Shown piece after piece: positions 1,464 through 61,026 of a stretch of DNA of 64,000 bases. This DNA is from a candidate division Kazan bacterium RIFCSPHIGHO2_01_FULL_44_14 (GTDB taxonomy: Bacteria; Patescibacteriota; Kazan-3B-28): positions 631,200-695,199 of the forward strand of contig METB01000001.1 of the NCBI GenBank assembly GCA_001771185.1, in the 5' to 3' direction. The translations under genes and the position numbers were made by a program. The notes under the pieces are model-generated. The model saw nothing but the letters and a program-made list of their open reading frames with translations. It was not told the origin of the DNA and ran no database searches. Within the stretch, counting starts at the first letter, position 1; every line of letters begins with the position of its first letter.

Positions 1464-4400
1464 ATGAAGTTTAAGCCGATTGATTCACGAGTGGACTTCG
1501 CCAAACAAGAGGAAGAAGTTCTTGAATTTTGGGATAAGGAAAAAATCTTTACCAAAAGTTTAGAGCAACGGCATGGCGGAAAGCGCTATGTCTTTTTTGA
1601 AGGCCCGCCCACAGCCAACGCTAAGCCGGGTTTGCATCACGCATTAGCACGTTATTTTAAGGATTTGTTTCCGCGGTACAAAACCATGCGAGGGTATTTA
1701 GTGGAGCGTAAGGCCGGTTGGGATACGCATGGGTTGCCAGTTGAAATTGCAGTGGAAAAAGAATTGAAGCTAACTTCTAAACCCGATATTGAAAAGTATG
1801 GGGTGGCTAAATTTAATGCCAAGGCCAAGGAAAGTGTGTGGCAACATAAAGAGGATTGGGAAAAATTCACCAAGCGGAGTGGTTTTTGGTTGGATATGGA
1901 GCACCCGTATATTACCTATGAACCAGATTATATTGAGTCGGTTTGGTGGATTTTGAAGCAGGCCTGGGATAAAGGACTGATTTATCAAGGTCATCGAGTG
2001 GTGCCACGGTGTCCGAGATGCGGAACGGCGTTATCAAGTCATGAAGTGGCACAGGGATACAGGGAGGTGAGCGAAACTTCACTTTATGTGAAGTTTCGAG
2101 TTAAAGAAGCAGGTAGCCCCTCCCAACTACGCCAAGGCTTCGATGGACAGGCGGTACCTCGGGGTACCAGTAAAAATACATTTTTACTAGCATGGACGAC
2201 GACACCGTGGACACTACCTGGCAATGTGGCATTGGCAATAGGAAATGAAATTTCCTATTGCAAGTTAAAAGTGACTCAACGGAGTCATCCTGAGCGAAGC
2301 GATAGCGTAGTCGAAGGATCTAGCAACCAGATTCCTCGACATGCTCGGAATGACAATACAGAGTACCTGATTTTGGCGGAGGAGTTGATTGAGAAAGTTT
2401 TTGGTAAAGAGAAAGTTGAAATTGTTGATAGATTTCAAGGGAAGGATTTGGTTGGATTCGAGTATGAACCACTATTCCCAGGAGCGGTACCAGACAATAC
2501 ACCAAATTATCAAAATGCGTTTAAGGTTTATCCAGCCGGTTTTGTAACTACGGATGAAGGGACTGGCGTGGTGCATACGGCGGTGATGTATGGTGAGGAC
2601 GACTATCAACTAGGCGAAAAAGTTGGGTTACCCAAGTTCCATACTGTGCTTCCAGACGGCACTTTTGGCCCAACTGTAGGAGAATGGGCAGGGAAGTTTG
2701 TGAAGGACTCTGAAGTTGAGAAAGGAATTATTGAGTATCTCCGGGAAAATCAGTCATTATTTAAAGAAGAAAAGTTTACGCATGATTATCCGTTCTGTTG
2801 GCGGTGCGAAACACCATTGTTGTATTACGCGGCCGAGAGTTGGTTTATTGCGATGTCTAAATTACGCGACCAATTAATTAAAAACAACGATGCGGTTGAA
2901 TGGACTCCATCTCATATTAAAGATGGTCGGTTTGGTGAATGGCTCCGAGAAGTGAAGGACTGGGGGATTTCTCGCGAGCGATACTGGGGAACCCCTTTGC
3001 CATTTTGGATGCCTGTCCGTACCACTGACGGCGAAGCCGCTGTGGGCGGAAGTGATGATAAACCGATGTGTGTAGGTTCGTTTTCGGAACTTAATAAACT
3101 AGCCAAAGACCCAAGTTTGGTTGGAACCAATTTTGATCCGCATAAACCATTTGTGGACGAAATCGTATTAGTGAAAGATGGTAAGGAATTCAAAAGGGTT
3201 CCGGAAGTTTTGGATGTCTGGTTTGATTCTGGTGCGATGCCCTTTGCCCAATGGCATTATCCAATCGAGAACGCTGAAAAAATTGATCGGGGCGAGGCCT
3301 TCCCAGCTGATTTTATTTCTGAAGCAATCGATCAAACCCGGGGCTGGTTTTATACCATGTTGGCGATTTCGACTATGTTGGGTAAGCCAGCGCCATATAA
3401 GCAGGTGATTTGTTTGGGACATATTCTGGATAAACATGGCAAGAAGATGAGTAAGTCCAAAGGGAACACAGTCGACCCGTGGACGATTTTTGATAAATAC
3501 GGTTCAGATGCATTGAGATGGTATCTGTACACCATTAATCAACCAGGGTTGTCCAAGAACTTTGACGAAGAAGGAGTGAAAACAGTGGTTAGAAGGTTAA
3601 TGCTAACCATCTGGAACACTTATTCATTTTTTGTAACTTATGCCAACATTGACGGATTTATTCCTGACTTGAATGTGAAAGTTAAACCAACGGAAGTGTT
3701 GGATAAATGGATTTGGACTCGTCACGACCAATTGATTGAACATGTAACATATCATTTGGACCGATACGAGCCAATGGCGGCCTGCCAAGCGATAGAAAGT
3801 TTTGTTGATGATTTGTCGAATTGGTATATTCGCAGAAACCGTCGTCGGTTTTGGCGGACAGGTGATGCTAGTCAGACCAAAGACAAACAACAGGCCTATG
3901 TCGTGCTTCATGCCGTGCTGAAGGATTTAACTAAACTAATGGCCCCGTTTATGCCGTTTTTGAGTGAAGCAATTTATGCCAATCTAAAAACAGACGAGGA
4001 ACCAATCTCGGTCCACCTGACGACTTGGCCAAGGGCGGGCAAGGTGGATGAGTTAATCTTGGAAGAAATGAGTCAAGTCCGGCACTGGGTGGAATTGGGA
4101 CTAAATCAAAGAGAAGTGGCCGGAATTAAGGTGCGTCAACCATTGGCGAGGTTTTCAATTAAAGCCAAACAGTTAGATGGTGATTTGATTGCTATTTTGT
4201 GCGAGGAATTAAATGTAAAAGAAATTGTGTTAGGGGATAACATTGAACAGTTGGATACGAAGTTGACTGATAAACTACTGGAAGAGGGATTGGTGCGGGA
4301 ATTAGTTCGGGCAATTCAGGTCTTACGCAAAGAGTCCGGATTTGAAATTCAGGACCACATTTCGATTACTTGGCAAACCGAAAGTAAAGCACTTCGTCAA

Positions 4401-4529
4401 GCGATTAAGGTCTGGGGCGAATATATTCAGTCCGAAACCCTAGCCGATATTTTAATCCAGAGCGAAAACGATGGTTATGAGGTCAAAATAGAAGACAATG
4501 TGGTAAAGTTGGTGGTAGAGAAGAAATAA
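1464..4529 (+). CDS. ileS: Isoleucyl-tRNA synthetase
   Basis: A 1021-aa class I aaRS with the HIGH-like motif PPTANAKPGLHHA and the KMSKS motif (KMSKSKGN). It carries two in-frame repeat-element insertions at 2111-2164 and 2284-2354. Confidence 0.95.
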   Translation: MKFKPIDSRVDFAKQEEEVLEFWDKEKIFTKSLEQRHGGKRYVFFEGPPTANAKPGLHHALARYFKDLFPRYKTMRGYLVERKAGWDTHGLPVEIAVEKELKLTSKPDIEKYGVAKFNAKAKESVWQHKEDWEKFTKRSGFWLDMEHPYITYEPDYIESVWWILKQAWDKGLIYQGHRVVPRCPRCGTALSSHEVAQGYREVSETSLYVKFRVKEAGSPSQLRQGFDGQAVPRGTSKNTFLLAWTTTPWTLPGNVALAIGNEISYCKLKVTQRSHPERSDSVVEGSSNQIPRHARNDNTEYLILAEELIEKVFGKEKVEIVDRFQGKDLVGFEYEPLFPGAVPDNTPNYQNAFKVYPAGFVTTDEGTGVVHTAVMYGEDDYQLGEKVGLPKFHTVLPDGTFGPTVGEWAGKFVKDSEVEKGIIEYLRENQSLFKEEKFTHDYPFCWRCETPLLYYAAESWFIAMSKLRDQLIKNNDAVEWTPSHIKDGRFGEWLREVKDWGISRERYWGTPLPFWMPVRTTDGEAAVGGSDDKPMCVGSFSELNKLAKDPSLVGTNFDPHKPFVDEIVLVKDGKEFKRVPEVLDVWFDSGAMPFAQWHYPIENAEKIDRGEAFPADFISEAIDQTRGWFYTMLAISTMLGKPAPYKQVICLGHILDKHGKKMSKSKGNTVDPWTIFDKYGSDALRWYLYTINQPGLSKNFDEEGVKTVVRRLMLTIWNTYSFFVTYANIDGFIPDLNVKVKPTEVLDKWIWTRHDQLIEHVTYHLDRYEPMAACQAIESFVDDLSNWYIRRNRRRFWRTGDASQTKDKQQAYVVLHAVLKDLTKLMAPFMPFLSEAIYANLKTDEEPISVHLTTWPRAGKVDELILEEMSQVRHWVELGLNQREVAGIKVRQPLARFSIKAKQLDGDLIAILCEELNVKEIVLGDNIEQLDTKLTDKLLEEGLVRELVRAIQVLRKESGFEIQDHISITWQTESKALRQAIKVWGEYIQSETLADILIQSENDGYEVKIEDNVVKLVVEKK
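2111..2164. repeat. B-family repeat copy inserted in-frame in ileS (encodes [18 protein letters not shown])
   Basis: About 49/52 nt are identical to 19352-19403 inside serS. Confidence 0.8.
2284..2354. repeat. A-family inverted-repeat mini-element (gtcatcctgagcgaag...ggaatgac) inserted in-frame in ileS
   Basis: It has the GTCATYC/GGAATGAC termini and the ggatct/agattcc core shared with at least 10 other copies. Confidence 0.75.
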
Positions 4530-5423: not shown

Positions 5424-5446
5424 AAGTGATAAGTGAAAAGTTGTGG

Positions 5447-5474
5447 TGTCCCCTCGGTCCCTCGGGGTATCAAT
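5447..5474. repeat. G-family CTCGG-box 28-mer (gtcccctcggtccctcggggtatcaatc)
   Basis: Its reverse complement recurs at 13583-13610. Related boxes lie at 23608, 23890, 30781 and 31140. Confidence 0.6.
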
Positions 5475-5515
5475 CTTAGTAGGACTTATAGAATGAATTA
5501 AGAATTCTCTCTTTT

Positions 5516-5716
5516 TCCTACCGGCCCTTCAGTGAAGGGTTGTTCTGAATTGAGCTAAATCATTGCCGCGAAGCCACTGTTTAAGGAGCGAAGCGACGAG
5601 TTTGGCTGTAAGCGGAAAAATGATTTAGCCAATGAATAAGCCCGGAACTGTCCGGGCCACGGCTTTGGTTACTTTCACCAAGAGGAAAGTAACGGCGGGT
5701 TGAGCGTCGCCTAAAC
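5516..5716 (-). repeat. D-family structured 3'-end element, copy 1 (minus strand, downstream of lepB)
   Basis: Its reverse complement carries the H1 hairpin gttactttcctcttggtgaaagtaac, then ...ccgggcttattcattgg, the 10-bp helix ctaaatcatt/aatgatttag, and ctcaattcagaacaacccttcactgaagggccgg. Confidence 0.75.
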
Positions 5717-5724
5717 GCTCAAAA

Positions 5725-6577: not shown

Positions 6578-6828
6578 CTATGGAACAAAAACCAATAAAC
6601 AAATAACAAATATCAAATAGCCACCAGGGGACAATAACCAAATGACAAATGACCCACCTTCGCCAGGGGCTACGGAATGGGCAGGCAAATGACCACCAGG
6701 GGACAGTAACCAAATAACAAACATCAAATAATATTCAAAGGATAATCTAGTAATATTCCGCTCCTATTGCGGAGTTTTGGTGTTGGTGCTAGGATGTGGG
6801 CATCTTTCAGATAAGGTGGTGATGTTCT

Positions 6829-13654: not shown

Positions 13655-13769
13655 TTTCTGCTCCGTCATCCCGAACTTGTTTCGGGATCCAGCAAAGAAA
13701 ACAAACAATCTGTTCTTGTCTAGATTCCGGGTCCCGCCTTCGTCCAGGGCTACGGAACGGGCAGGCAAG
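13655..13769. repeat. A-family mini-element (gtcatcccgaac ... cccggaatgac)
   Basis: It has the family termini and the internal agattccgg core. Confidence 0.7.
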
Positions 13770-13868
13770 CCCGGAATGACAAAAGAACTTTTCACCTATC
13801 ACTAGCCCTCTCTCGAGACCTGGTATAATCAAATAGTTGAGGATATATTTTCTAAATTCTTCTACGGG

Positions 13869-18268: not shown

Positions 18269-19606
18269 ATGGATTTAAAGCAATTAGAGGACAATCTGTA
18301 CACTTGGCAGTCAGCCCTGGAGAGACGAGGGGCGGAAGTGGATTTGAACAAAGTATTAGAGGCGCATAAGTGTTATCTTGAGTTATTGCAAAAGTCCGAG
18401 GAATTGAGAGCTAGACGCAACACGGCGGCTCGGGCCCAAGATATTGAAGCAGGTAAGCCCTACTCCGCTGAAGCTACGAAGGGTCTGCGACAGGCAAAGG
18501 GTTTATTGAAAGAAATGGAAGACGAGTTGGCTACAGCTAAAGCAGAGTTGGACGAATTAGTGGCCGGAATTCCCAATCTACCTAGTGGTGATATTCCTGA
18601 CGGAGGGGAAGAAAATAATAAGGTCTTGGGAGTGGTGGGGAAACCGCGAACCATCGATAATCCCAAAGACCACATTGAATTAGGTGAAGGCCTGGGGATT
18701 TTGGATATTGAGCGAGGGACCAAGGTCTCGGGCGCTCGGTTTTATTATTTGAAAAATCAGGCAGTCGAATTGGAATTTGCGATTGTTAGATGGTTGATGG
18801 ACTTATTGAAAGAGAAAGGATTTGAACTGCTGATAGGTCCAGAACTTTTAAATGAAAAGGCGATGTTGGCAGGCGGATATTTGGGTAAAGCTGTGGACGA
18901 AGTTTACAAAACTCAAGATGAATTATATTTGATTGGTACGGCCGAACAAAGTATTTTGGCTTATCATTTGGATGAAATTGTTCCCGTTCCCAAACGATAT
19001 GCTAGTTTTTCAACTTGCTTTCGGAGAGAAGCTGGTAGTTACGGAAAAGATGTGAAAGGAATTATTCGAACGCATCAGTTCGATAAAATCGAAATGTTTT
19101 CGTTTGTGGCGCCGAGTATGTCGGCTCGGGAACATGAATTTTTAGTATCAATTCAAGAAGAAATTTTGCAAGGACTGGAAATTCCATATCAGAAAGTGCT
19201 ACTGGCGGCGGGGGACTTGAGTATGGCTTCGGCCAAGACGATTGATTTGGAAAGTTGGTTGCCGTCACAGAATCGGCATCGGGAAACCCATAGTTGTAGT
19301 AATTGCACTGATTGGCAGGCGAGACGGGCGAAGATTCGTTACAGGGAGCAAGGTAGTCCCTCCCAACTACGCCAAGGCTTCGATGGGCAGGCGGTTCCTC
19401 GGGATAACATAAAAAATGACTTCCTGACGAATGGAGGGGGTACTACCGGTAACAAGCCAGAGTTGGTTCATACGCTAAACGGTACAGCGGTAGCGATTGG
19501 GCGTATACTTGTGGCTATACTGGAAAACCATCAACAGATAGATGGGAGCGTGATTGTCCCTAAAGTTCTGCATCCGTATTTGAGTTTTAAGGAAATTAGA
19601 CCATGA
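18269..19606 (+). CDS. serS: Seryl-tRNA synthetase
   Basis: It has the N-terminal coiled-coil arm and class II motifs (FRREAGS..., [22 protein letters not shown]). An in-frame repeat insertion lies at 19352-19403. Confidence 0.9.
19352..19403. repeat. B-family repeat copy inserted in-frame in serS (encodes [18 protein letters not shown])
   Basis: It is near-identical to 2111-2164 in ileS. Confidence 0.8.
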
Positions 19607-22332
19607 GTTTTTTAACTAAACTTCTGGGGAATCCGAACAAACAGGCAATAAATAAACTGAAACCGATTGTAATGCGGGTGAATTCGTTTGAACCGGAAAT
19701 TCAAAAACTTTCGGATGAACAGTTACGAGCCAAGACAGACGAGTTTAAAAGTCGGTTGGAAAAAGGCGAAACCCTAGATGATATTTTATCAGAGGCCTAT
19801 GCGGTGGTTCGTGAAACGGCCAAGCGAGTGCTAGGTGAGCGGCATTTTGATGTGCAGATTATGGGAGGCGTTGCGTTGCACCAAGGTAAAATTGCCGAAA
19901 TGAAAACAGGTGAAGGAAAAACTTTGGTCTCAACTTTGCCAGTCTATTTGAATGCCTTAACTGGCAAAGGTGTGCATGTTGTAACGGTGAATGATTATCT
20001 GGCTAAACGTGACTCGGAGTGGATGGGCCAGATTTATGAATTTTTGGGACTCACGGTTGGAGTAGTGATTCATGATAAGTCCACCGAAGACAGGAAACTA
20101 GCGTACGCATCCGATATTACTTACGGCACTAATAATGAATTCGGATTTGATTATTTGCGGGACAATATGGCTCCAACCCATGAAGCCCAAGTCCAACGGT
20201 CACTTAATTTTGTGATTGTGGACGAGGTGGACTCGATTTTGATTGATGAGGCCAGAACACCTCTGATTATTTCAGCGCCGGACGAGGAGTCAACGACACA
20301 CTATCAGCGGTTTGCGATGATTGCACCGCAATTAACCGAAAATGTCGATTTTACTAAAGACGAGAAATCCAAAACAACATCACTGACTGAAGCGGGGATT
20401 GAAAAGGTTCAAAAACTTTTAAACATTCCAGACATTTATGAATCGGGTAATATTTTATTGGCGCATCATATTGAGCAGGCGTTACGGGCCCAATTTTTGT
20501 ATAAGAAAGATGTCGATTATGTAGTGACAAATGGCGAGATTTTGATTGTGGACGAATTTACTGGTCGGTTGATGCAGGGCAGAAGATATTCAGAAGGTTT
20601 ACATCAGGCGATTGAAGCCAAAGAAGGGGTGGAAGTCCAACGGGAGAGCAAGACCTTGGCGACAATTACTTTCCAAAATTATTTTCGATTGTATGAAAAA
20701 TTATCCGGGATGACTGGTACGGCCAAGACCGAAGAAGAAGAATTTTGGAAAATATATGGGTTGGAGGTGGTAATGATACCGACCAATCAGCCGTTGGCCA
20801 GGACCGATTTGAATGATTTAATTTATGTTAATGAAAAGGCCAAGTTTGAGGCGGTAGTCAAAGAAATTAAACGGCGGTATGAAACCGGTCAGCCGATTTT
20901 GGTTGGTACGATTGCGATTGAAAAGTCCGAACTTTTATCTGACATGTTGAAATTGGAAGGGGTGCCCCATAATGTTTTGAATGCTAAACAACATGAGCGG
21001 GAAGCGGAGATTGTTAAAGATGCTGGACAAAAGGGAGCGGTAACGATTGCCACCAACATGGCTGGGCGAGGAACTGACATTAAATTAGGTGAAGGAGTGA
21101 GGGAACTTGGCGGATTGCATATTTTGGGGACTGAACGACATGAGTCCCGTCGAATTGATAATCAGCTTCGGGGACGGGCCGGTCGGCAAGGGGACCCAGG
21201 TAGTACTCAATTTTTTGTGTGCTTGGAAGATGACTTGATGCGGTTGTTTGGAAGTGAACGGCTGAAAAGCATGATGACCACGCTGAAAGTGCCAGAAGAT
21301 CAACCATTGGAACATAAATGGATAACTTCCAGTATTGAATCGGCCCAGAAGCGAGTGGAGGGGCATAACTTTGATATTCGTAAACGAGTAGTGGAATACG
21401 ATGATGTGATGAATCGTCATCGGTCCACGATTTATCGTCAACGGCAAAAGTTGCTTTCAGCTGGTGATGTGAAAGATACGGTCTGGGGTTATGTAGAACA
21501 AGAACTGCGAGGAATGTTGGCAATGTATGCGGTGAGCGAAAAACCAGACGCCAAGTTGTTAGTGGAAAGTGTGTTGGCGATTGTGCCATTGTCAGGCGGT
21601 TTCCAAAAAGAATTATCCGAAAATCCTGATGCTGATGTATTAGTAACAGAGGCCAAAAAAATATATGAGAATAAAGAAAAAGAAGTTGGCGAAGAGACCT
21701 TCCGCCAAGTGGAACGAATGGTGTTGCTTCGAGTAATGGACATGATGTGGATGGAGCATATTGATGCAATGATGAAGTTGCGCGAAGCGATTGGTTTGCA
21801 TGGTTATGCGCAAAAAGACCCACTGGTGGAATACAAACAGGAAAGTTACATGATGTTTCAACGGTTACAAATGGTAATTGCGGGAGATGTGGCGCGGATG
21901 ATTTTTAGAGTCAGAGTTGCGAGCAATGAGTCACGAGTTGTGAGTGAAGACAAAGAACTCCAAGAAAAGAAAAATATGGCGATGAAGGGGGCGGAATCCG
22001 ACTCCGCTGAAGCTTCCGCCTTCGCCGAGGCTTCGGCGGACCAACGGACGCCGGACGCAAATTTAAATTTACAAGGTGGTGCGGAGCCGAGCGGGGATTT
22101 TGAAGATGAAGAGAAAGAAATTGCCGAAATTAAAAATGACAAATTACAAATGAAAAATTCGGATGCCCATCCGGAAACCGAGATTCAAAATTCTAATGTC
22201 TCAAGTGGTGCGGTCAGGGATCCGGAAGACAAGAAAGATAAAGTCGGGCGGAATGACCCATGTCCATGCGGAGCGATAAAACCGGATGGTGGGCCGATTA
22301 AATATAAGCACTGTCATGGAAGAGGGAAATAA
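19603..22332 (+). CDS. secA: Preprotein translocase ATPase SecA
   Basis: It has the DEAD-like motor ([26 protein letters not shown]) and the C-terminal zinc finger [23 protein letters not shown]. An acidic, low-complexity insert precedes that tail. It has an ATGA overlap with serS. Confidence 0.95.
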
Positions 22333-23296: not shown

Positions 23297-23453
23297 GTCA
23301 TCCTGAGCGAGGTGTAAGCCGAGTCGAAGGATCTAGGCGTAGCCGTCTATAAGAAATTCGCTATCGCCCCAACGGGGGCCCTTTGGGGCTAGATTCTTCA
23401 TCCCGGCAAGCCGGGATTCAGAATGACAGAAGGTAGGCGGGGGCCGGAATGAC
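23297..23453. repeat. A-family mini-element(s) (gtcatcctgagcgag ... gaatgac ... ggaatgac)
   Basis: It carries the family termini and core. Confidence 0.7.
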
Positions 23454-36417: not shown

Positions 36418-36448
36418 AATATAGAATTTGGAATTTAGAATTTTGAGT

Positions 36449-36883
36449 ATGAGAGTGATATTTTTGCAGAATGTGGCGGGAGTGGCAAAGCGGGGTGATG
36501 TAAAAGAAGTGGCCAGTGGTTATGCTCAAAACTTTTTATTGCCTAATGGTTTGGCAGAAATGGCAACTTCAGGAAGGGTGTCGGCGATGAAAGAGCAGTC
36601 CGAACAAAAAACTGCCAAGCAAGAGGCCAAGAGTGGAGAATTGGCACAGCAGGTAAGCGAGTTAGCAGGTAAGCAGGTAAGTATTAGTGTTAAGGCCAAT
36701 CCGAAGGGTGGTTTGTTTGCCATGGTGACAGCCGAGGACATTATTAAACACCTGGGAGTGAAACTTTCTCCTGACCAGATTTTTATTTTGGAACCAATTA
36801 AAAGTGTGGGTGAGCATATAGTAGAGGTGCGGGGTGGCGATGCAACTGCTAAAATAACAGTGACAGTTCAGGCAAAGGCCTGA
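36449..36883 (+). CDS. rplI: 50S ribosomal protein L9
   Basis: MRVIFLQNVAGVAKRGDVKEVASGYAQNFLLP. Confidence 0.9.
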   Translation: MRVIFLQNVAGVAKRGDVKEVASGYAQNFLLPNGLAEMATSGRVSAMKEQSEQKTAKQEAKSGELAQQVSELAGKQVSISVKANPKGGLFAMVTAEDIIKHLGVKLSPDQIFILEPIKSVGEHIVEVRGGDATAKITVTVQAKA

Positions 36884-49467: not shown

Positions 49468-49571
49468 CAAGGTGTAAGGTGGGCCTGTAATTTTCAGGGA
49501 TATCAACCATCAGCACCTTGAAGACTAGTTCTGCAAAACTGGCCAGCAAGGCGAACCAGAAGGAGACTAGG

Positions 49572-50624
49572 ATGAACATCCTGGCCGCTATTAGTGTCGT
49601 ATTGAAATTTCTCGAAGCTTTGATTGTTGCTAATCAAGACAAAGATGGTCATTTCTCCCGGGTGAGTGAGTTGCTTACACAGCTCAAGTCGCTCGGCGAA
49701 GAGCCCCTCTCTCGTCTGATGCAGCGGATTAATGTTGTTGGCTTGGTGCTGAGCCGGGTCAGCATCCCCAGTTACGAAGAGTTTCAGGGGTTCGTGGACA
49801 CACAGGTTCTTTCCTGGCTACCGAAGCCGTCCCGTACACCAACCCGACTCAAGGGCAATTGGCAGAACGAACGACTGAAGGTGCAGAAGAAAGCCTGGGC
49901 CGTAATCGGGGTCGAGCTTCCGCAGGATCTTTGTGATGAGTTCGTTGCAATCCTAAACAAGTGTGGCGCCGAATTGGTAGCGACCCTCGAGGCGTATGGC
50001 TTCATGTTTGTTATCACGCCGGATATCACTTGGACCGTCAACACTTGGCCTGCCAAGTGGGTTAAGCTCAACAACTGGTTCTGGCAGATTCTGGGTAGCG
50101 GACGTCTCCTCAAAGAGGATGACACCGTAATCCAGCACTGCAAGCTCCAACGCCAGGTCCTGCTAATCGATACACGCAAGAAGCCTGTCTATGCTGACGG
50201 TCGTCAGTGTTGGGACAAGGATGTGTTCATGGAGGCTCTAATCGGGTGGCTTCAAGACCAAAAGAAACTGCCTATCGACAGCACCTGCGGTCGTGGTAGT
50301 CGCTTCCGCTTAAGCCGCAACGACTATACAAAGGTTGTGGCTCCAGCTTTATTAGAGGCGCTTCAACAGCTCGGTTGTCCGGCTCAAGCCGTTCGGTTGG
50401 AATACTGTCCGGAGCATTCTGCTTTCTGCCAGCTGTTTGATGCCCCCCGCAAGGATAGTGGAAAGACAACCACTTGGCTGTGGTTCCAAGAGCGACTGGA
50501 CTCGTCCGGGCACTCGCTGCATAGCGGGGTCTCCGGCAGCGGTGGTCTGGCGTTCGTCAGTTTCAACAATTCCGACTACCGCTGGAACAACGTATCTGCT
50601 TCGCTCGTGGCAGTTATGGTCTAG
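49572..50624 (+). CDS. DGR variable (target) protein; the C-terminal ~41 codons are the variable repeat
   Basis: The SD aaggag lies 8 nt before the ATG. The 3' 123 nt (50493-50615) match the downstream TR except at TR adenines. The C-terminus is ...WLWFQERLDSSGHSLHSGVSGSGGLAFVSFNNSDYRWNNVSASLVAV. The TTG at 49518 is an alternative start. Confidence 0.7.
   Translation: MNILAAISVVLKFLEALIVANQDKDGHFSRVSELLTQLKSLGEEPLSRLMQRINVVGLVLSRVSIPSYEEFQGFVDTQVLSWLPKPSRTPTRLKGNWQNERLKVQKKAWAVIGVELPQDLCDEFVAILNKCGAELVATLEAYGFMFVITPDITWTVNTWPAKWVKLNNWFWQILGSGRLLKEDDTVIQHCKLQRQVLLIDTRKKPVYADGRQCWDKDVFMEALIGWLQDQKKLPIDSTCGRGSRFRLSRNDYTKVVAPALLEALQQLGCPAQAVRLEYCPEHSAFCQLFDAPRKDSGKTTTWLWFQERLDSSGHSLHSGVSGSGGLAFVSFNNSDYRWNNVSASLVAVMV
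50493..50615 (+). repeat. DGR variable repeat (VR)
   Basis: Of 123 nt, 112 are identical to TR. All 11 mismatches sit at positions where TR has A (VR has C, T or G). Confidence 0.85.
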
Positions 50625-50668
50625 GCCATTTTGGGCGTTTGGATTTTTTGGAATTTGGTATCATCCCC

Positions 50669-50698
50669 GAGCGGGGTTGCTTGCAACCCCGCTCTTTT
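50669..50698 (+). terminator. GC-rich hairpin directly downstream of VR (gagcggggtt-gcttgc-aaccccgctc + TTTT); a DGR target-recognition hairpin and/or terminator
   Basis: A 10-bp perfect stem lies 54 nt after the end of VR, with a T-tract. Confidence 0.7.
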
Positions 50699-50922
50699 CA
50701 TATACTGATGTAGATGCGGCAGTGAATAGATACTTTGGTATCTATCGTCGCTCTCCCTTTTGGGACCAGCCAGAGTTTATAAACTCAAGTAGTTTATAAA
50801 GAGTGCTAAACCTAAAAGAGAAACTGCGTATCTGCTACTCAGTCTCATGAAGTGAGGCGCATAAAATACAGGCAGAACATCTTGTTTGTTTGCCAGTGCT
50901 AAAGGATGGTGGCAGATACTAA

Positions 50923-51045
50923 CGACTGGACTCGTCCGGGCACTCGCTGAATAGCGGGGACTCCGACAACGGTGGTCTGGCGAACGTCAATTACAACAAT
51001 TCCGACAACCGCTGGAACAACGAATCTGCTTCGCTCGTGGAAGTT
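50923..51045 (+). repeat. DGR template repeat (TR)
   Basis: It is the non-coding cognate of VR, has the same length, and is adenine-rich at the mismatch positions. Confidence 0.85.
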
Positions 51046-51065
51046 TCTCGCATTAGGTAGGTAAA

Positions 51066-51089
51066 GGGGGCGGGGGTCACCTCGCCCCC
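51066..51089. terminator. Hairpin gggggcg-ggggtcacct-cgccccc overlapping the avd stop codon
   Basis: A 7-bp GC stem lies between TR and the convergent avd gene. Confidence 0.5.
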
Positions 51090-51382
51090 TTAGTCGTAGT
51101 TTTAATCCAACCTCCCAGCATTTTTCCTATTTCTTGTAGCTTAGTTTGGAGGGTTAGATAATACTTTTCGTTAAGTGCCTGCACCTCATAACCCAAGCGG
51201 ATTTGTAGCTTCACTAAATCCAGCAAGGCACTCGCTCTAAATAGTATCTCCACCCTGGAGCGTTCAGGAGTGGAGGAGGCCGTCAGGACACATTCCACTA
51301 ACTCCAATATCTTCGCTTGGGTCATCTGGCCCAGACTGTATCGCTCAATTTTGGGATATTTCAAAAGATGTCCATGAAACAA
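51077..51382 (-). CDS. avd: DGR accessory variability determinant (Avd-like four-helix-bundle protein)
   Basis: It is ~100 aa and basic, with a C-terminus ...EIGKMLGGWIKTTTKGAR that resembles Bordetella phage bAvd ...EVGRILGSWIARVNRKGQ. It lies between TR and the RT but on the opposite strand. Confidence 0.65.
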   Translation of the reverse strand: MFHGHLLKYPKIERYSLGQMTQAKILELVECVLTASSTPERSRVEILFRASALLDLVKLQIRLGYEVQALNEKYYLTLQTKLQEIGKMLGGWIKTTTKGAR

Positions 51383-51503
51383 TTTGTAAAACTCGAAGAG
51401 CTGATAAACGATTGGGATTTCACCAAATCCGTCCGGGGGGGGGCTTAATAGGAAGGTTATTTTCCATACTGGTGTTTTTGAAGAAATTATTTCGTTAGAG
51501 AAT

Positions 51504-52616
51504 TTGTTTTTGGCTTGGAGGGAGTTTCGGAAAGGTAAACGAGGTAAGTTAGATGTCCAAGCGTTCGAGCTTCATCTTGAAGATAACATATTTGCTCTTT
51601 ACGAGGAGTTAGCGGGTGGAGATTATTGCCACGGTGGCTATCATCAGTTTCGCATCTCCGACCCGAAATCTCGCTTGATTAGTAAGGCGTTGGTTCGGGA
51701 TAGGTTGCTCCACCACGCTATCTGCCGAATCTTGTATCCGGTTTTTGATCGAACCTTTATCTTTGATAGCTACTCTTGTCGAAAGAATAAAGGGACGCAT
51801 AAAGGATTCTTTCGGTTAGCCGAGATGGCTCGAAAAGTCAGTAGAAACTATACTGGTCCGTGCTGGGCGTTGAAGTTGGATATTCGGAAGTTTTTCGACA
51901 GTGTCGATCATAGTGTGTTGATGGGGCTGTTAAGAGGGCGCATTGCCGACGAGCGACTGCTGGGGTTATTGGGGAATATTATTGGTAGCTTCCCTATGCG
52001 TCATTCTGAACGCAGTGAAGAATCTAGCGGTAGCGTTCTGCTGTACAGCAGAACTAGATCCTTCGCTAACGCTCAGGATGACAGGAGGAGAGTTCAGGAT
52101 GACGAGAGGAGAGTTAAGGATGACAAAGGAGCGGGCGGGGATGACGAAGGTGGCAAGGGGATGCCATTGGGGAATCTGACCTCACAATTATTTGCCAATA
52201 TCTATCTGGATCCATTAGATAAGTTTGCGAAACATCACTTAAGAGCTAAATATTATCTTCGCTATGCCGATGACTTTATTTTCTTGGCCGATAACCCAGA
52301 CGAACTAATGGGCTATTTTGTGGAGGTAAATCAGTTTTTGAAAATCAAGCTAAAGCTTAATCTTCATCCAAATAAAATCTCTCTCCGAAAATTGGACTGG
52401 GGAATTGACTATGTTGGGTATGTGGCATTGCCACATTACGCTGTTCCCAGAAGCAAAACGGTTACCCGGATTGTTAAAAAGATTCGTCGACTTGTAGTGA
52501 TAGGTGACGAAGCAACTTTGACTAAAGCAATGCCGTCATATTTAGGGTATCTTGAGCATACTAGTAGCTACCGAGTGAGGCGACGGTTAGAGGGAGTAGT
52601 CGAGAGGATACCATAA
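51504..52616 (+). CDS. DGR reverse transcriptase
   Basis: It has RT motifs ...LKLDIRKFFDSVDH..., the DGR-specific PLGNLTSQLFANIYL (LGxxxSQ in place of the group II QGxxxSP), and YADDFIFLAD. The conserved N-terminal motif FEEIISLENLFLAWREFRKGKR begins upstream at ~51477, where no ATG/GTG/TTG is in frame. An in-frame A-family repeat insertion lies at 52016-52150. Confidence 0.85.
   Translation: MFLAWREFRKGKRGKLDVQAFELHLEDNIFALYEELAGGDYCHGGYHQFRISDPKSRLISKALVRDRLLHHAICRILYPVFDRTFIFDSYSCRKNKGTHKGFFRLAEMARKVSRNYTGPCWALKLDIRKFFDSVDHSVLMGLLRGRIADERLLGLLGNIIGSFPMRHSERSEESSGSVLLYSRTRSFANAQDDRRRVQDDERRVKDDKGAGGDDEGGKGMPLGNLTSQLFANIYLDPLDKFAKHHLRAKYYLRYADDFIFLADNPDELMGYFVEVNQFLKIKLKLNLHPNKISLRKLDWGIDYVGYVALPHYAVPRSKTVTRIVKKIRRLVVIGDEATLTKAMPSYLGYLEHTSSYRVRRRLEGVVERIP
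52016..52150. repeat. A-family mini-element inserted in-frame in the DGR RT (encodes RHSERSEESSGSVLLYSRTRSFANAQDDRRRVQDDERRVKDDKGAGGDDEGG)
   Basis: gtcattctgaacgcagtgaagaatctag ... tcaggatgacagg, then a 4x tandem aggatgac tail. Its 5' part is near-identical to 13329-13360. Confidence 0.75.
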
Positions 52617-60892: not shown

Positions 60893-61026
60893 TCATTCCA
60901 GATCCGCCATCCGCCAACTGGCGGAGGCGGAAGTCCGGGATCCAGTAAAGAAAATAAAAAATCTATTTCTGTTTTGGTCTGGATTCCCGCGGGCGCGGGA
61001 ATGACAGTAGAGGGGTGGGAATGACA
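60893..61026. repeat. A-family mini-element (gtcattccagatc ... gcgggaatgac)
   Basis: It has the family termini and the internal ccgccaactggcgg hairpin. Confidence 0.7.

Follow-up and report, generated by a model that had tools for sequence, protein, structure and literature searches.

How the same short, GC-rich run of nucleotides came to lie in frame in two aminoacyl-tRNA synthetase (aaRS) genes of one bacterial genome, ileS and serS, is the question raised by the locus described here. The window (the whole 64-kb stretch of DNA that was analysed) belongs to a member of the Patescibacteria (CPR), as judged by the names of the homologues of its proteins. Selfish repeats that colonise essential genes in frame are a textbook phenomenon in Rickettsia and are held to be unusual elsewhere. 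The preliminary description of this DNA had proposed recent, independent insertion of nucleotides in the two genes and not a shared protein domain, and had drawn a parallel with the palindromic elements of Rickettsia. The results presented below bear out the former proposal and part of the latter; the aaRS inserts are probably copies of a short GC-rich genomic repeat spreading at the DNA level in this CPR genome.

1464..4529, plus strand: ileS, encoding isoleucyl-tRNA synthetase (IleRS, 1021 aa; PDB 1ile, E 1.8e-242), which holds two or three inserts
2112..2168, plus strand: copy 1 of the 57-nt element, in ileS, with the 30-nt core module at 2121-2150
2284..2354, plus strand: GTCATCC...GGAATGAC element, 71 nt, IleRS insert 2, read in frame as SHPERSDSVVEGSSNQIPRHARND
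18269..19606, plus strand: serS, encoding seryl-tRNA synthetase (SerRS, 445 aa; PDB 6x94, E 3e-89), which holds two inserts
19352..19408, plus strand: copy 2 of the 57-nt element, in serS, with the core module at 19361-19390

The two copies were read directly from the sequence. The ileS copy, GGTAGCCCCTCCCAACTACGCCAAGGCTTCGATGGACAGGCGGTACCTCGGG, is present as had been described, with an exact span of 2112-2163 instead of 2111-2164, and the serS copy, GGTAGTCCC...GGTTCCTCGGG, lies at 19352-19403, precisely where it had been placed. They are identical at 49 of 52 nucleotides, in agreement with the earlier figure of about 94%. The length of the element is 52 nt without a weak outer stem, GGTAGCCCC...GGGGTACC, and 57 nt once the stem is counted. 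A 29-nt core, CCCTCCCAACTACGCCAAGGCTTCGATGG, is exact in both aaRS copies, with a match in none of 100 dinucleotide shuffles, and a repeat search of the window groups the two copies as one family (D15). In both of the long reading frames the first base of the copy falls on a codon boundary (G217 in IleRS and G362 in SerRS) and the identical 17-residue peptide is encoded, as claimed previously; the element has no stop in four of its six frames. The folding of the element as RNA is no more stable than that of shuffled sequence (z 0.05, 0.05 and -0.15 for the three copies known from this genome) and its description as a stable hairpin was therefore rejected.

Comparison with orthologues shows the inserts to be lineage-specific. 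Relative to them the ileS insert comprises 2109-2168 (60 nt, 20 codons) and the serS insert 19352-19447 (96 nt, 32 codons), the 3' 39 nt of the latter being additional AT-rich sequence beyond the element (encoding 15 residues); SerRS has 445 aa here against about 402 aa in its relatives. The insert is missing from one close SerRS orthologue (P0004; 83% alignment identity, 74% by BLASTP) and from about 60 further SerRS sequences, and another close orthologue (P0003; 88% alignment identity, 84% by BLASTP) carries a different module in the same loop. Of the 77 aligned IleRS sequences that cover the region, about 70 have no insert in loop 1, and most of them have none in loop 2 either; both inserts are absent from most Patescibacteria IleRS, and in some other IleRS the two loops hold unrelated inserts that are likewise repeat-derived. 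Across lineages, different repeats have struck the same tolerant loops of the two synthetases repeatedly. The contig of the closest ileS relative (80% identical) ends within ileS.

The location of the inserts in the proteins was examined in AlphaFold models and, as the preliminary description had proposed, in alignments to known structures. Mean pLDDT is 89.6 for IleRS, in which the only low-confidence segments are residues 217-235, 275-296 and 521-528, and 88.7 for SerRS; values below 50 are confined to insert 1 (217-235), insert 2 (275-296) and the short segment 521-528 of IleRS and to residues 365-393, the C-terminal-side insert, of SerRS. The inserts sit between confident strands with flanks of pLDDT above 90, the alignments to 1ile and 6x94 are gapped exactly at the insert points, and Thermus thermophilus IleRS has a shorter loop at the position of insert 1. 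The inserts are thus predicted to occupy surface sites compatible with the fold, where they are modelled as disordered.

The repeat also occurs outside coding regions. A third copy of the 57-nt element, 88% identical, was found in the same genome 8 kb beyond the end of the window, on the minus strand of a gap of about 700 nt between called genes, and this lends weight to independent insertion at the nucleotide level. The locus that holds it (L022) was considered as the DNA of another organism and this was rejected, since it overlaps the tail of the window and is 100% identical to locus L042. The exact 57-nt variant has only these three copies in about 93 kb of this genome. Rfam searches of the window and seven loci at the gathering threshold, and of 2050-2420 at a permissive E-value, returned only tRNA and noise, with no ribozyme or intron matching the inserts. 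Both ileS elements gave nothing significant in blastn against plasmids, and the four open-frame peptides, joined, gave no match at E <=10 in a protein database search, for which the query is too short given 5.8e9 sequences.

The search for further copies, also proposed earlier, showed that the 57-nt aaRS element is one variant of a wider family of 30-nt modules (10 codons) of the form CCCAAC-TACGCCAAGGCTTC-GATGGG-CAGG. Besides the aaRS copies, its relatives in the window include a second site in serS and one in secA as well as intergenic members:

6653..6686, plus strand: member of the module family between genes, CCCACCTTCGCCAGGGGCTACGGAATGGGCAGGC, with a tRNA gene 80 nt upstream of it
13665..13780, plus strand: intergenic GTCAT...ATGAC doublet whose second hairpin encloses a module-family member in its loop (13733)
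18457..18489, plus strand: divergent module of 33 nt, GCCCTACTCCGCTGAAGCTACGAAGGGTCTGCG, in the part of serS that encodes the N-terminal coiled-coil tip
22000..22044, plus strand: module-family sequence in the SecA C-terminal linker, in frame, 15 residues
63515..63545, minus strand: intergenic divergent core copy CTACGCCGAGGCTTCGGCGGACAAG, adjoining a ...GAATGAC end

The 33-nt module of serS is identical to the core at 22 of 33 positions in register, with an A-T to T-A swap in the stem; it is missing from both close orthologues at the nucleotide level, and the region of the coiled-coil tip (SerRS residues 51-70) has pLDDT values of 63-74. Within the family the closing base pair covaries (CG 12, UA 4, AU 3). 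In metagenomes the core was found at 21 distinct loci, after removal of duplicates and chance matches, and most of these lie outside any long ORF. Four matches (L010, L016, L026 and L029) were discarded as chance 20-mers in high-GC genes. At one locus (L012) the core is read in frame, and in a RarA-like gene of another organism (L011) it is in frame on the other strand, encoding a different peptide, again as expected of insertion at the DNA level. The identical core recurs in many environments, on contigs that have 36-57% GC and in which the sequence around it is unrelated. The proposition that it always stands at the apex of a long inverted repeat was rejected, flank complementarity reaching z <-2 in only 3 of 25 copies. 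A scan of viral contigs gave no match, and a scan of genome collections, which are not exhaustive and did not return the species of the window itself, gave a Balneolaceae MAG only. No current RNA or repeat catalogue accounts for this 30-nt core conserved across very different hosts.

The second insert of IleRS probably arose in the same way as the 57-nt insert but from a different repeat, a miniature palindromic element. It occupies 2284-2354 in frame, as reported earlier, and consists of an inverted pair of hairpin units resembling the NTS/SRM repeats discussed below. Its folding energy is -28.3 kcal/mol (z -3.8 against shuffles), so that the word palindromic, in view of z values near 0 for the 57-nt element, is apt for the GTCAT element only. 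An element about 85% identical in nucleotides occurs in another Patescibacterium (L041) in a different ileS loop, loop 1, of an IleRS only about 60% identical to that of the window, which further supports independent insertion. The window contains 8 complete GTCAT...ATGAC elements of 71-153 nt with the termini GTCATYCC/GGRATGAC, flanked by T-rich sequence on the 5' side and A-rich sequence on the 3' side, without direct repeats. Two members of the family are relevant here:

52000..52082, plus strand: GTCAT...ATGAC element within the reverse transcriptase ORF 51504-52616, read in frame
60978..61005, minus strand: intergenic NTS-like hairpin GTCATTCCCGCGCCCGCGGGAATCCAGA, the reference link of the GTCAT family to Neisseria NTS/dRS3

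The latter hairpin, GTCATTCCCGCGCCCGCGGGAATCCAGA, is a single loop base off the Neisseria NTS consensus (PMC11893778), and blastn of 60970-61010 matched one N. gonorrhoeae record at 40 places or more. Sites of the NTS type, with a GTCAT(T/C) head, a short hairpin and an ATC-YRG tail, number 10 in the window against 2.9 in shuffles. The strict SRM pattern HGTCWYN(0-2)YYVSBRHN(0-5)WNVSBRGN(0-2)RNCYNB has two window matches against 0.28 expected; the GTCAT copy in ileS falls outside it, the window units having longer loops and one position that differs.

Several other origins of the aaRS inserts were weighed against the spread of a genomic repeat. The 17-residue peptide could be a selected functional appendage of both synthetases, for instance a loop on which tRNA or a shared partner docks, gained in a single event and then copied for its usefulness. 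In its favour, aaRS genes amount to about 11% of the window yet hold both coding copies, which share strand and frame; IleRS insert 1 precedes the WTTTPWTLP editing motif by 8 residues; and none of the three differences between the coding copies over 51 nt changes an amino acid (p ~0.02), a hint of constraint at the level of the peptide. However, the next 6 nt hold two non-synonymous changes, making two of the five differences over 57 nt non-synonymous, and the LysRS-type and GlyRS/HisRS-type genes of the window have no copy of the element. The minus-strand copy between called genes, the use of another frame and strand in the RarA-like gene, the close orthologues with no insert or different ones and the modelled disorder of the inserts speak against an appendage as well, and it is considered quite improbable. 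Removal of the inserts from the mRNA, or their bypass as in phage T4 gene 60 and the mitochondrial 'byp' elements, such that they would be absent from the mature protein, merits hardly any credence. Each insert stands out by its high GC content (60-65%, the whole window having 44%), and the codons around that of ileS, GCA GGT AGC ... CGG GGT ACC, place GGT on both sides; but both copies consist of whole codons and are stop-free in the frame used, no stop stands behind the putative take-off codon, and the lack of a stable hairpin and of any ribozyme or intron match in Rfam is equally unfavourable, as is the fact that the inserts of SecA, the reverse transcriptase and RarA are likewise in frame.

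The manner of spread itself admits of another reading, in which host recombination or replication (microhomology template switching, gene conversion) generates the repeats as passive by-products that are not mobile DNA. The borders of the inserts are suggestive in this respect. Of the 7 occurrences of the octamer AGCA(A)GGTA in the window, three mark the 5' edges of the three aaRS module inserts. The uninserted orthologue natively has the octamer AGCAGGTA at the N-terminal site of serS, and the other two inserts are bordered by it as well; the modules terminate in sequence like CAGGCAAG, which is similar to this border. No unambiguous target-site duplication accompanies the 57-nt element, the GGTA...GGTA flanks of which are possibly ends of the element itself. 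The different modules of sister lineages at one serS loop are what replacement by conversion would give, insertion of 30- or 33-nt units leaves the frame intact by default, and no mobilising gene was found in about 93 kb: a motif scan of the window, L042, L044 (together about 93 kb) and the fetched metagenome loci detected no GIY-YIG-like (Ssn) ORF, 20 ORFs scanned with Pfam included no transposase or RAYT, and no parent IS was found for the GTCAT elements. Host recombination alone nevertheless explains poorly the identity of the core across contigs of such diverse GC content, environment and flanks, and the class to which the associated GTCAT units belong has a dedicated nuclease in other bacteria (PMC11893778); this reading is regarded as rather unlikely. 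As for chimeras assembled from repeat-collapsed reads, contigs of the relatives and of this organism do break at repeat-rich places, one scaffold ending near window position 23.2 kb and ileS standing at a contig end in relatives. Against this, an identical SerRS was read in 11 contigs, which among the matches listed come from four samples (ENA and JGI) and different assemblers, locus L044 is identical to the window across 11,325 nt including ileS, and the reading frames are intact. The presence of the same DNA in independent assemblies shows that it is not an assembly artefact, and chimerism is extremely improbable.

Given the preferred reading, namely the spread of a genomic repeat, the following course of events may be envisaged. 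Related modules reside in intergenic DNA, often within the loops of GTCAT-headed hairpin repeats, and genic copies would persist only where whole codons are added, the frame used is stop-free and a surface loop is tolerant. We infer that the surviving genic copies are translated, as disordered loop extensions of an otherwise normal IleRS and SerRS, and that they are near-neutral. As a best guess, movement may proceed by single-strand or hairpin-directed insertion or by microhomology-guided copying at AGCAGGTA / GGTA ... TAAAAAAT borders, possibly with the help of a nuclease acting in trans, of either the Ssn (GIY-YIG) or the RAYT type.

Among the known repeat systems, the Rickettsia palindromic elements (RPEs) are in-frame repeats in unrelated essential genes, as well as intergenic ones, at sites compatible with the fold (PMC10969869). 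Like the aaRS element they are multi-copy, intergenic and in frame, adding a conserved peptide to a protein that is kept, and the parallel drawn earlier stands to this extent. It does not extend to palindromy: RPEs are palindromic and about 150 bp long (100-150), whereas the aaRS element, with a 30-nt module as its basis, measures 52-57 nt and shows no significant self-complementarity. The better structural analogue of the RPE is the GTCAT element (z -3.8), though it too is shorter, at 71 nt. The hosts also differ (Rickettsia there and a CPR bacterium here), and it is in their layout that the two are likened.

The REP, REPIN and BIME repeats resemble the present ones as short GC-rich hairpin units, single or in inverted doublets, in mosaic intergenic clusters, and the window-type element has GTAG at its 5' terminus (GGTAG), a putative further likeness. 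REPs are, however, extragenic by definition, whereas the 57-nt element is genic in two of its three copies, and REPs are mobilised with REPINs by RAYT (IS200/IS605-like), which is absent from the 20 Pfam-scanned ORFs. REP families are usually species-specific, whereas the 30-nt core is common to several phyla. The GC clusters or 'byp' elements of yeast mitochondria are short GC-rich mobile inserts in genes of an AT-richer genome; they break the frame and are bypassed, whereas the inserts described here preserve it and, judging by their sequence, would most simply be translated. MITEs (ERIC, Correia, Nezha) are small and non-coding, with terminal inverted repeats and occasional in-frame fusion, like the GTCAT doublets (PMC10969869), and it is the GTCAT element only (8 elements) that has such termini, these being themselves NTS-like hairpin units; neither a parent IS nor a clear target-site duplication was found here. 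The GTCAT units also resemble Neisseria NTS, which likewise begin with an oriented GTCAT(T/C)CC head and form a hairpin, with ATC-YRG as the tail. Chenal et al. (2025) described NTS/dRS3 and SRM as the targets of Ssn, a GIY-YIG single-strand nuclease (GIY-YIG_unchar_3) whose gene is typically flanked by repeats, and reported the SRM class to be cross-phylum and almost never intragenic (PMC11893778). The likeness is confined to the GTCAT units, as the 57-nt aaRS element has no GTCAT head; only two window sites fit the strict published pattern, and no ssn gene was found in the 93 kb or so scanned. A full-text literature search gave no paper connecting in-frame repeat colonisation with CPR/Patescibacteria, and a search with the element sequences and with CPR together with RPE or MITE gave only the Ssn paper (PMC11893778) and a MITE review.

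The findings support the view that selfish repeats remodel essential proteins in this organism much as palindromic elements do in Rickettsia, the same process now being observed in a CPR genome, where the units are far shorter. They provide a concrete source for the lineage-specific insertions of CPR proteins, call for caution in alignments, phylogenies and gene calls of CPR genomes, and tie coding-region inserts to the recently described NTS/SRM-Ssn class of repeats. More tentatively, and as a possibility well short of an even chance, the 30-nt module and the NTS/SRM-like GTCAT hairpins may form a cross-phylum mobile system that routinely makes in-frame loop insertions in essential CPR proteins (IleRS, SerRS, SecA, RarA and the DGR reverse transcriptase), perhaps driven by an Ssn-type single-strand nuclease or another enzyme. 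If this is true, the strict conservation of the module over hosts of 36-57% GC would point to some function or recognition site, and many of the lineage-specific insertions responsible for the divergent appearance of CPR proteins would be repeat-derived.

The isoleucyl- and seryl-tRNA synthetase genes of the window both carry, in frame, a copy of a GC-rich repeat of 52-57 nt (hereafter the 57-nt element) built around a 30-nt core, the module. The reading frames concerned are:

1464-4529, IleRS ORF (PDB 1ile, E 1.8e-242)
18269-19606, SerRS ORF (PDB 6x94, E 3e-89)

The ileS copy (GGTAGCCCCTCCCAACTACGCCAAGGCTTCGATGGACAGGCGGTACCTCGGG, 2112-2163) and the serS copy (GGTAGTCCC...GGGCAGGCGGTTCCTCGGG, 19352-19403) agree at 49 of 52 nucleotides, share an exact 29-nt core that was matched in none of 100 dinucleotide shuffles, and were also recovered as a pair by repeat finding in the window (family D15). 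Both begin on a codon boundary and encode the same 17-aa peptide, as claimed in the preliminary description; direct reading likewise confirmed its second ileS element, GTCATCC...GGAATGAC at 2284-2354, with in-frame read-through. The same synthetase-locus DNA was recovered in independent ENA and JGI assemblies, which excludes an assembly artefact. Named homologues bear the label 'candidate division Kazan' or 'Patescibacteria group'; the contigs derive from Rifle aquifer metagenomes.

Alignment with orthologues bore out the proposal that the peptides are lineage-specific insertions. The window SerRS has 445 aa vs about 402 aa in typical relatives; no insert precedes motif 3 in the orthologue P0004 (83% identity in the alignment, 74% by BLASTP), P0003 (88% and 84%, respectively) has a different 22-aa insert in the same loop, and the loop holds still other short inserts in P0014, P0088 and P0047. 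At the nucleotide level, the extra bases in this loop number 96 in the window, 66 unrelated ones in P0003 and none in P0004. Among the 77 aligned Patescibacteria IleRS that cover the region, loop 1 is free of inserts in about 70 and loop 2 in most; the rest have assorted other inserts in these loops. One of them, P0137, has SHPERSDSGVEGSKPEIPRQARNDK, the GTCAT element, in loop 1; at the DNA level this shares about 85% identity with the loop-2 copy of the window, against only about 60% between the two IleRS proteins. A separate Cys-rich, zinc-ribbon-like insertion of 40-70 aa, absent in the window SerRS, was observed in the catalytic domain of other Patescibacteria SerRS (P0047, P0075, P0099), between the conserved GYLGK and LYLIGT, and other lineages have 'AGKQVS/AGQQVSG'-type peptides in their IleRS and SerRS loops.

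Mapping onto structures placed the inserts in loops, as anticipated. In AlphaFold models that drew on 69 and 71 homologues (mean pLDDT 88.7 for SerRS and 89.6 for IleRS), pLDDT falls below 50 solely at 365-393 in SerRS, and at 217-235, 275-296 and a short 521-528 in IleRS; these segments match the inserts, each is flanked by well-modelled strands, and HMMER alignments to solved structures are interrupted there. The IleRS inserts lie eight residues upstream and about 25 residues downstream of the WTTTPWTLP editing motif. The 521-528 segment (window 3004-3057) is a GC-rich loop, TTDGEAAVGG, about ten residues longer than in relatives, and may represent another small insert of repeat origin.

A search for copies beyond the window yielded a third, GGTATCCCCTCCCAACTACGCCAAGGCTTCGATGGGCAGGCAGTTCTTCGGGGTAT, about 8.3 kb past its end on the opposite strand, located in a 700-nt gap between called genes that is crowded with other repeats; none was found in the 9.2 kb upstream. 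The contig concerned (L022), located by a metagenome scan for the core, is the downstream continuation of the same genome, since it overlaps the final 300 bases of the window and is 100% identical to L042, the contig carrying the last gene of the window. Four of the six frames of the 57-nt element are free of stops. A RarA-like ATPase (L011) has the core near its C-terminus, read from the other strand (…AHRSLGVVG…), and a 258-aa ORF (L012) has it in the LRQGFDGQ frame; the core lies outside any long ORF in most of 21 distinct metagenome loci, counted after removal of duplicates and of four matches rejected as chance occurrences inside high-GC genes. Two in-frame inserts, both apparently derived from repeats, are present in the L011 gene (174-1493), which comes from another metagenome; one of them contains the 30-nt core. 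The intergenic copy, the open frames and the use of other frames and strands fit a nucleotide element rather than a shared protein domain, in agreement with the original suggestion.

The conserved 30-nt unit reads (C/T)CCA(A/T)C-TACGCCAAGGCTTC-GATGG(G/A)-CAGG, and locus L027 has two tandem units with a 30-nt period, equal to ten codons. A short stem of the module is weakly supported by its closing pair (CG 12, UA 4, AU 3 across distinct sequences), the other stem positions being largely set by the search pattern. Within the window, more diverged members of the family were identified at:

18457-18489, 33-nt insert at the SerRS coiled-coil tip, lacking in both close orthologues, with a stem A-T to T-A swap
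22000-22044, SecA C-terminal linker
6653, 13733 and 63515, intergenic

AGCA(A)GGTA stands directly 5' of all three synthetase module inserts and is native at the SerRS N-terminal site in an uninserted orthologue; the octamer occurs seven times in the window, and a tandem AGCAGGTAAGCAGGTAAG array of the same octamer lies at 36648-36690 within ORF 36428-36883. All three 57-nt copies are followed by TAAAAAAT(R)AC. These borders, from three copies only, suggest a preferred target or microhomology. The SecA linker (22000-22158) combines the GC-rich module stretch with the heptad repeat AAATTAAAAATGACAAATTACAAATG, which is AT-rich, encodes a 10-aa peptide and is also found intergenically (families D2 and D6); similar peptides (EKLKVK, EELRMKN, TSHKPLA) occupy the loops of IleRS from other Patescibacteria.

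The window contains eight complete elements of the form GTCATYCC...GGRATGAC, 71-153 nt long, with T-rich 5' and A-rich 3' flanks, the ileS copy showing a strong fold (z -3.8). Each end is an oriented unit of GTCAT head, hairpin and ATC-YAG tail. The unit GTCATTCCCGCGCCCGCGGGAATCCAGA differs from the consensus of the Neisseria repeat NTS, CGTCATTCCCGCGMAVGCGGGAATCYRG, by one loop base, and a 41-nt query around it matched at least 40 places in an N. gonorrhoeae record; the hairpin lies in an intergenic region (60970-61010), and blastn located this motif in records of Neisseria, Photobacterium, Cupriavidus, Azospirillum and Legionella. Described in 2025, NTS and the broader group of Ssn-related motifs (SRM) are cross-phylum hairpin repeats; Ssn are small GIY-YIG nucleases that are flanked by NTS/SRM and cut them single-stranded, and only 2% of NTS cases in N. 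meningitidis are intragenic (PMC11893778). Membership of the window units in this class, their nearest known relatives, is likely by architecture but incomplete, because the strict published SRM pattern matches only two window sites and no GIY-YIG ORF was seen in about 93 kb of this genome. The 30-nt module lies inside a GTCAT hairpin loop at 13665-13780 and likewise in five contigs from soda lakes, of which two are assigned to a Balneolaceae MAG; judged from these positions, it is linked to the GTCAT units.

One more GTCAT...ATGAC element is in frame within the reverse transcriptase of a complete diversity-generating retroelement (49518-52616):

50493-50615, variable repeat, C-terminus of ORF 49518-50624
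50923-51045, template repeat
51504-52616, RVT_1 reverse transcriptase, containing LGNLTSQ

All 11 mismatches between variable and template repeats fall at template adenines. The in-frame element and the short GGATGAC-type repeats (RRRVQDDERRVKDDKG) that follow it (together 52000-52140) lie upstream of GMPLGNLTSQ. A 104-nt AT-rich repeat (family D1; 22359, 34563, 49238, 52621, 62464), with copies 72-89% identical to the reference copy and four of the five within about 30 nt after a gene end, may be a terminator-like or boundary element. The rplU (L21)-signal peptidase spacer (5424-5724) holds about 300 nt of interspersed repeats and is only 28 nt long in the syntenic relative DQGL01 (L040, 2793-2821). 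Contig ends of the organism and its relatives tend to coincide with repeats, inside ileS or at the GTCAT element near 23297 (position 1 of L039/L040; the scaffold_376 end near 23.2 kb), so repeats within genes may break up CPR assemblies and cut gene calls short.

On the best-supported account, small repeats would spread at the DNA level, selection would retain only those copies in tolerant loops that preserve the frame and lack stops, and these would be translated as disordered extensions. With a unit of 30 or 33 nt, frame preservation would be nearly free, and candidate movers are a trans-acting Ssn- or RAYT-like nuclease or microhomology-guided copying. The main biological rival, a functional 17-aa peptide shared by both synthetases, gains from the presence of both copies in synthetase genes, which make up about 11% of the window, and from three differences over 51 nt that are all synonymous (p ~0.02); however, the next six bases hold two non-synonymous differences, and the intergenic copy, the other frames and the insert-free orthologues also speak against it. 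Removal of the insert from the mRNA, its skipping by ribosomal bypass and assembly error are all unlikely.

Spread of repeats with retention of tolerated copies operates like the Rickettsia palindromic elements (RPE), which are of about 150 bp, form ten families and frequently give in-frame fusions (PMC10969869). The parallel drawn initially holds for the in-frame colonisation of ORFs but not for the palindromic character of the 57-nt element, a term that was rejected because the element folds no better than shuffles (z ~0) and significant complementary flanks surround the core in only three of 25 copies. Being a third of the RPE size, not palindromic and from a different phylum, it is not a member of an RPE family; the GTCAT element behaves like miniature inverted-repeat elements. 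An incomplete survey of the literature yielded no publication that connects such elements with CPR genomes. A common 30-nt core occurs in hosts of 36-57% GC, and repeats of the kind described here offer a source of lineage-specific insertions in CPR proteins.
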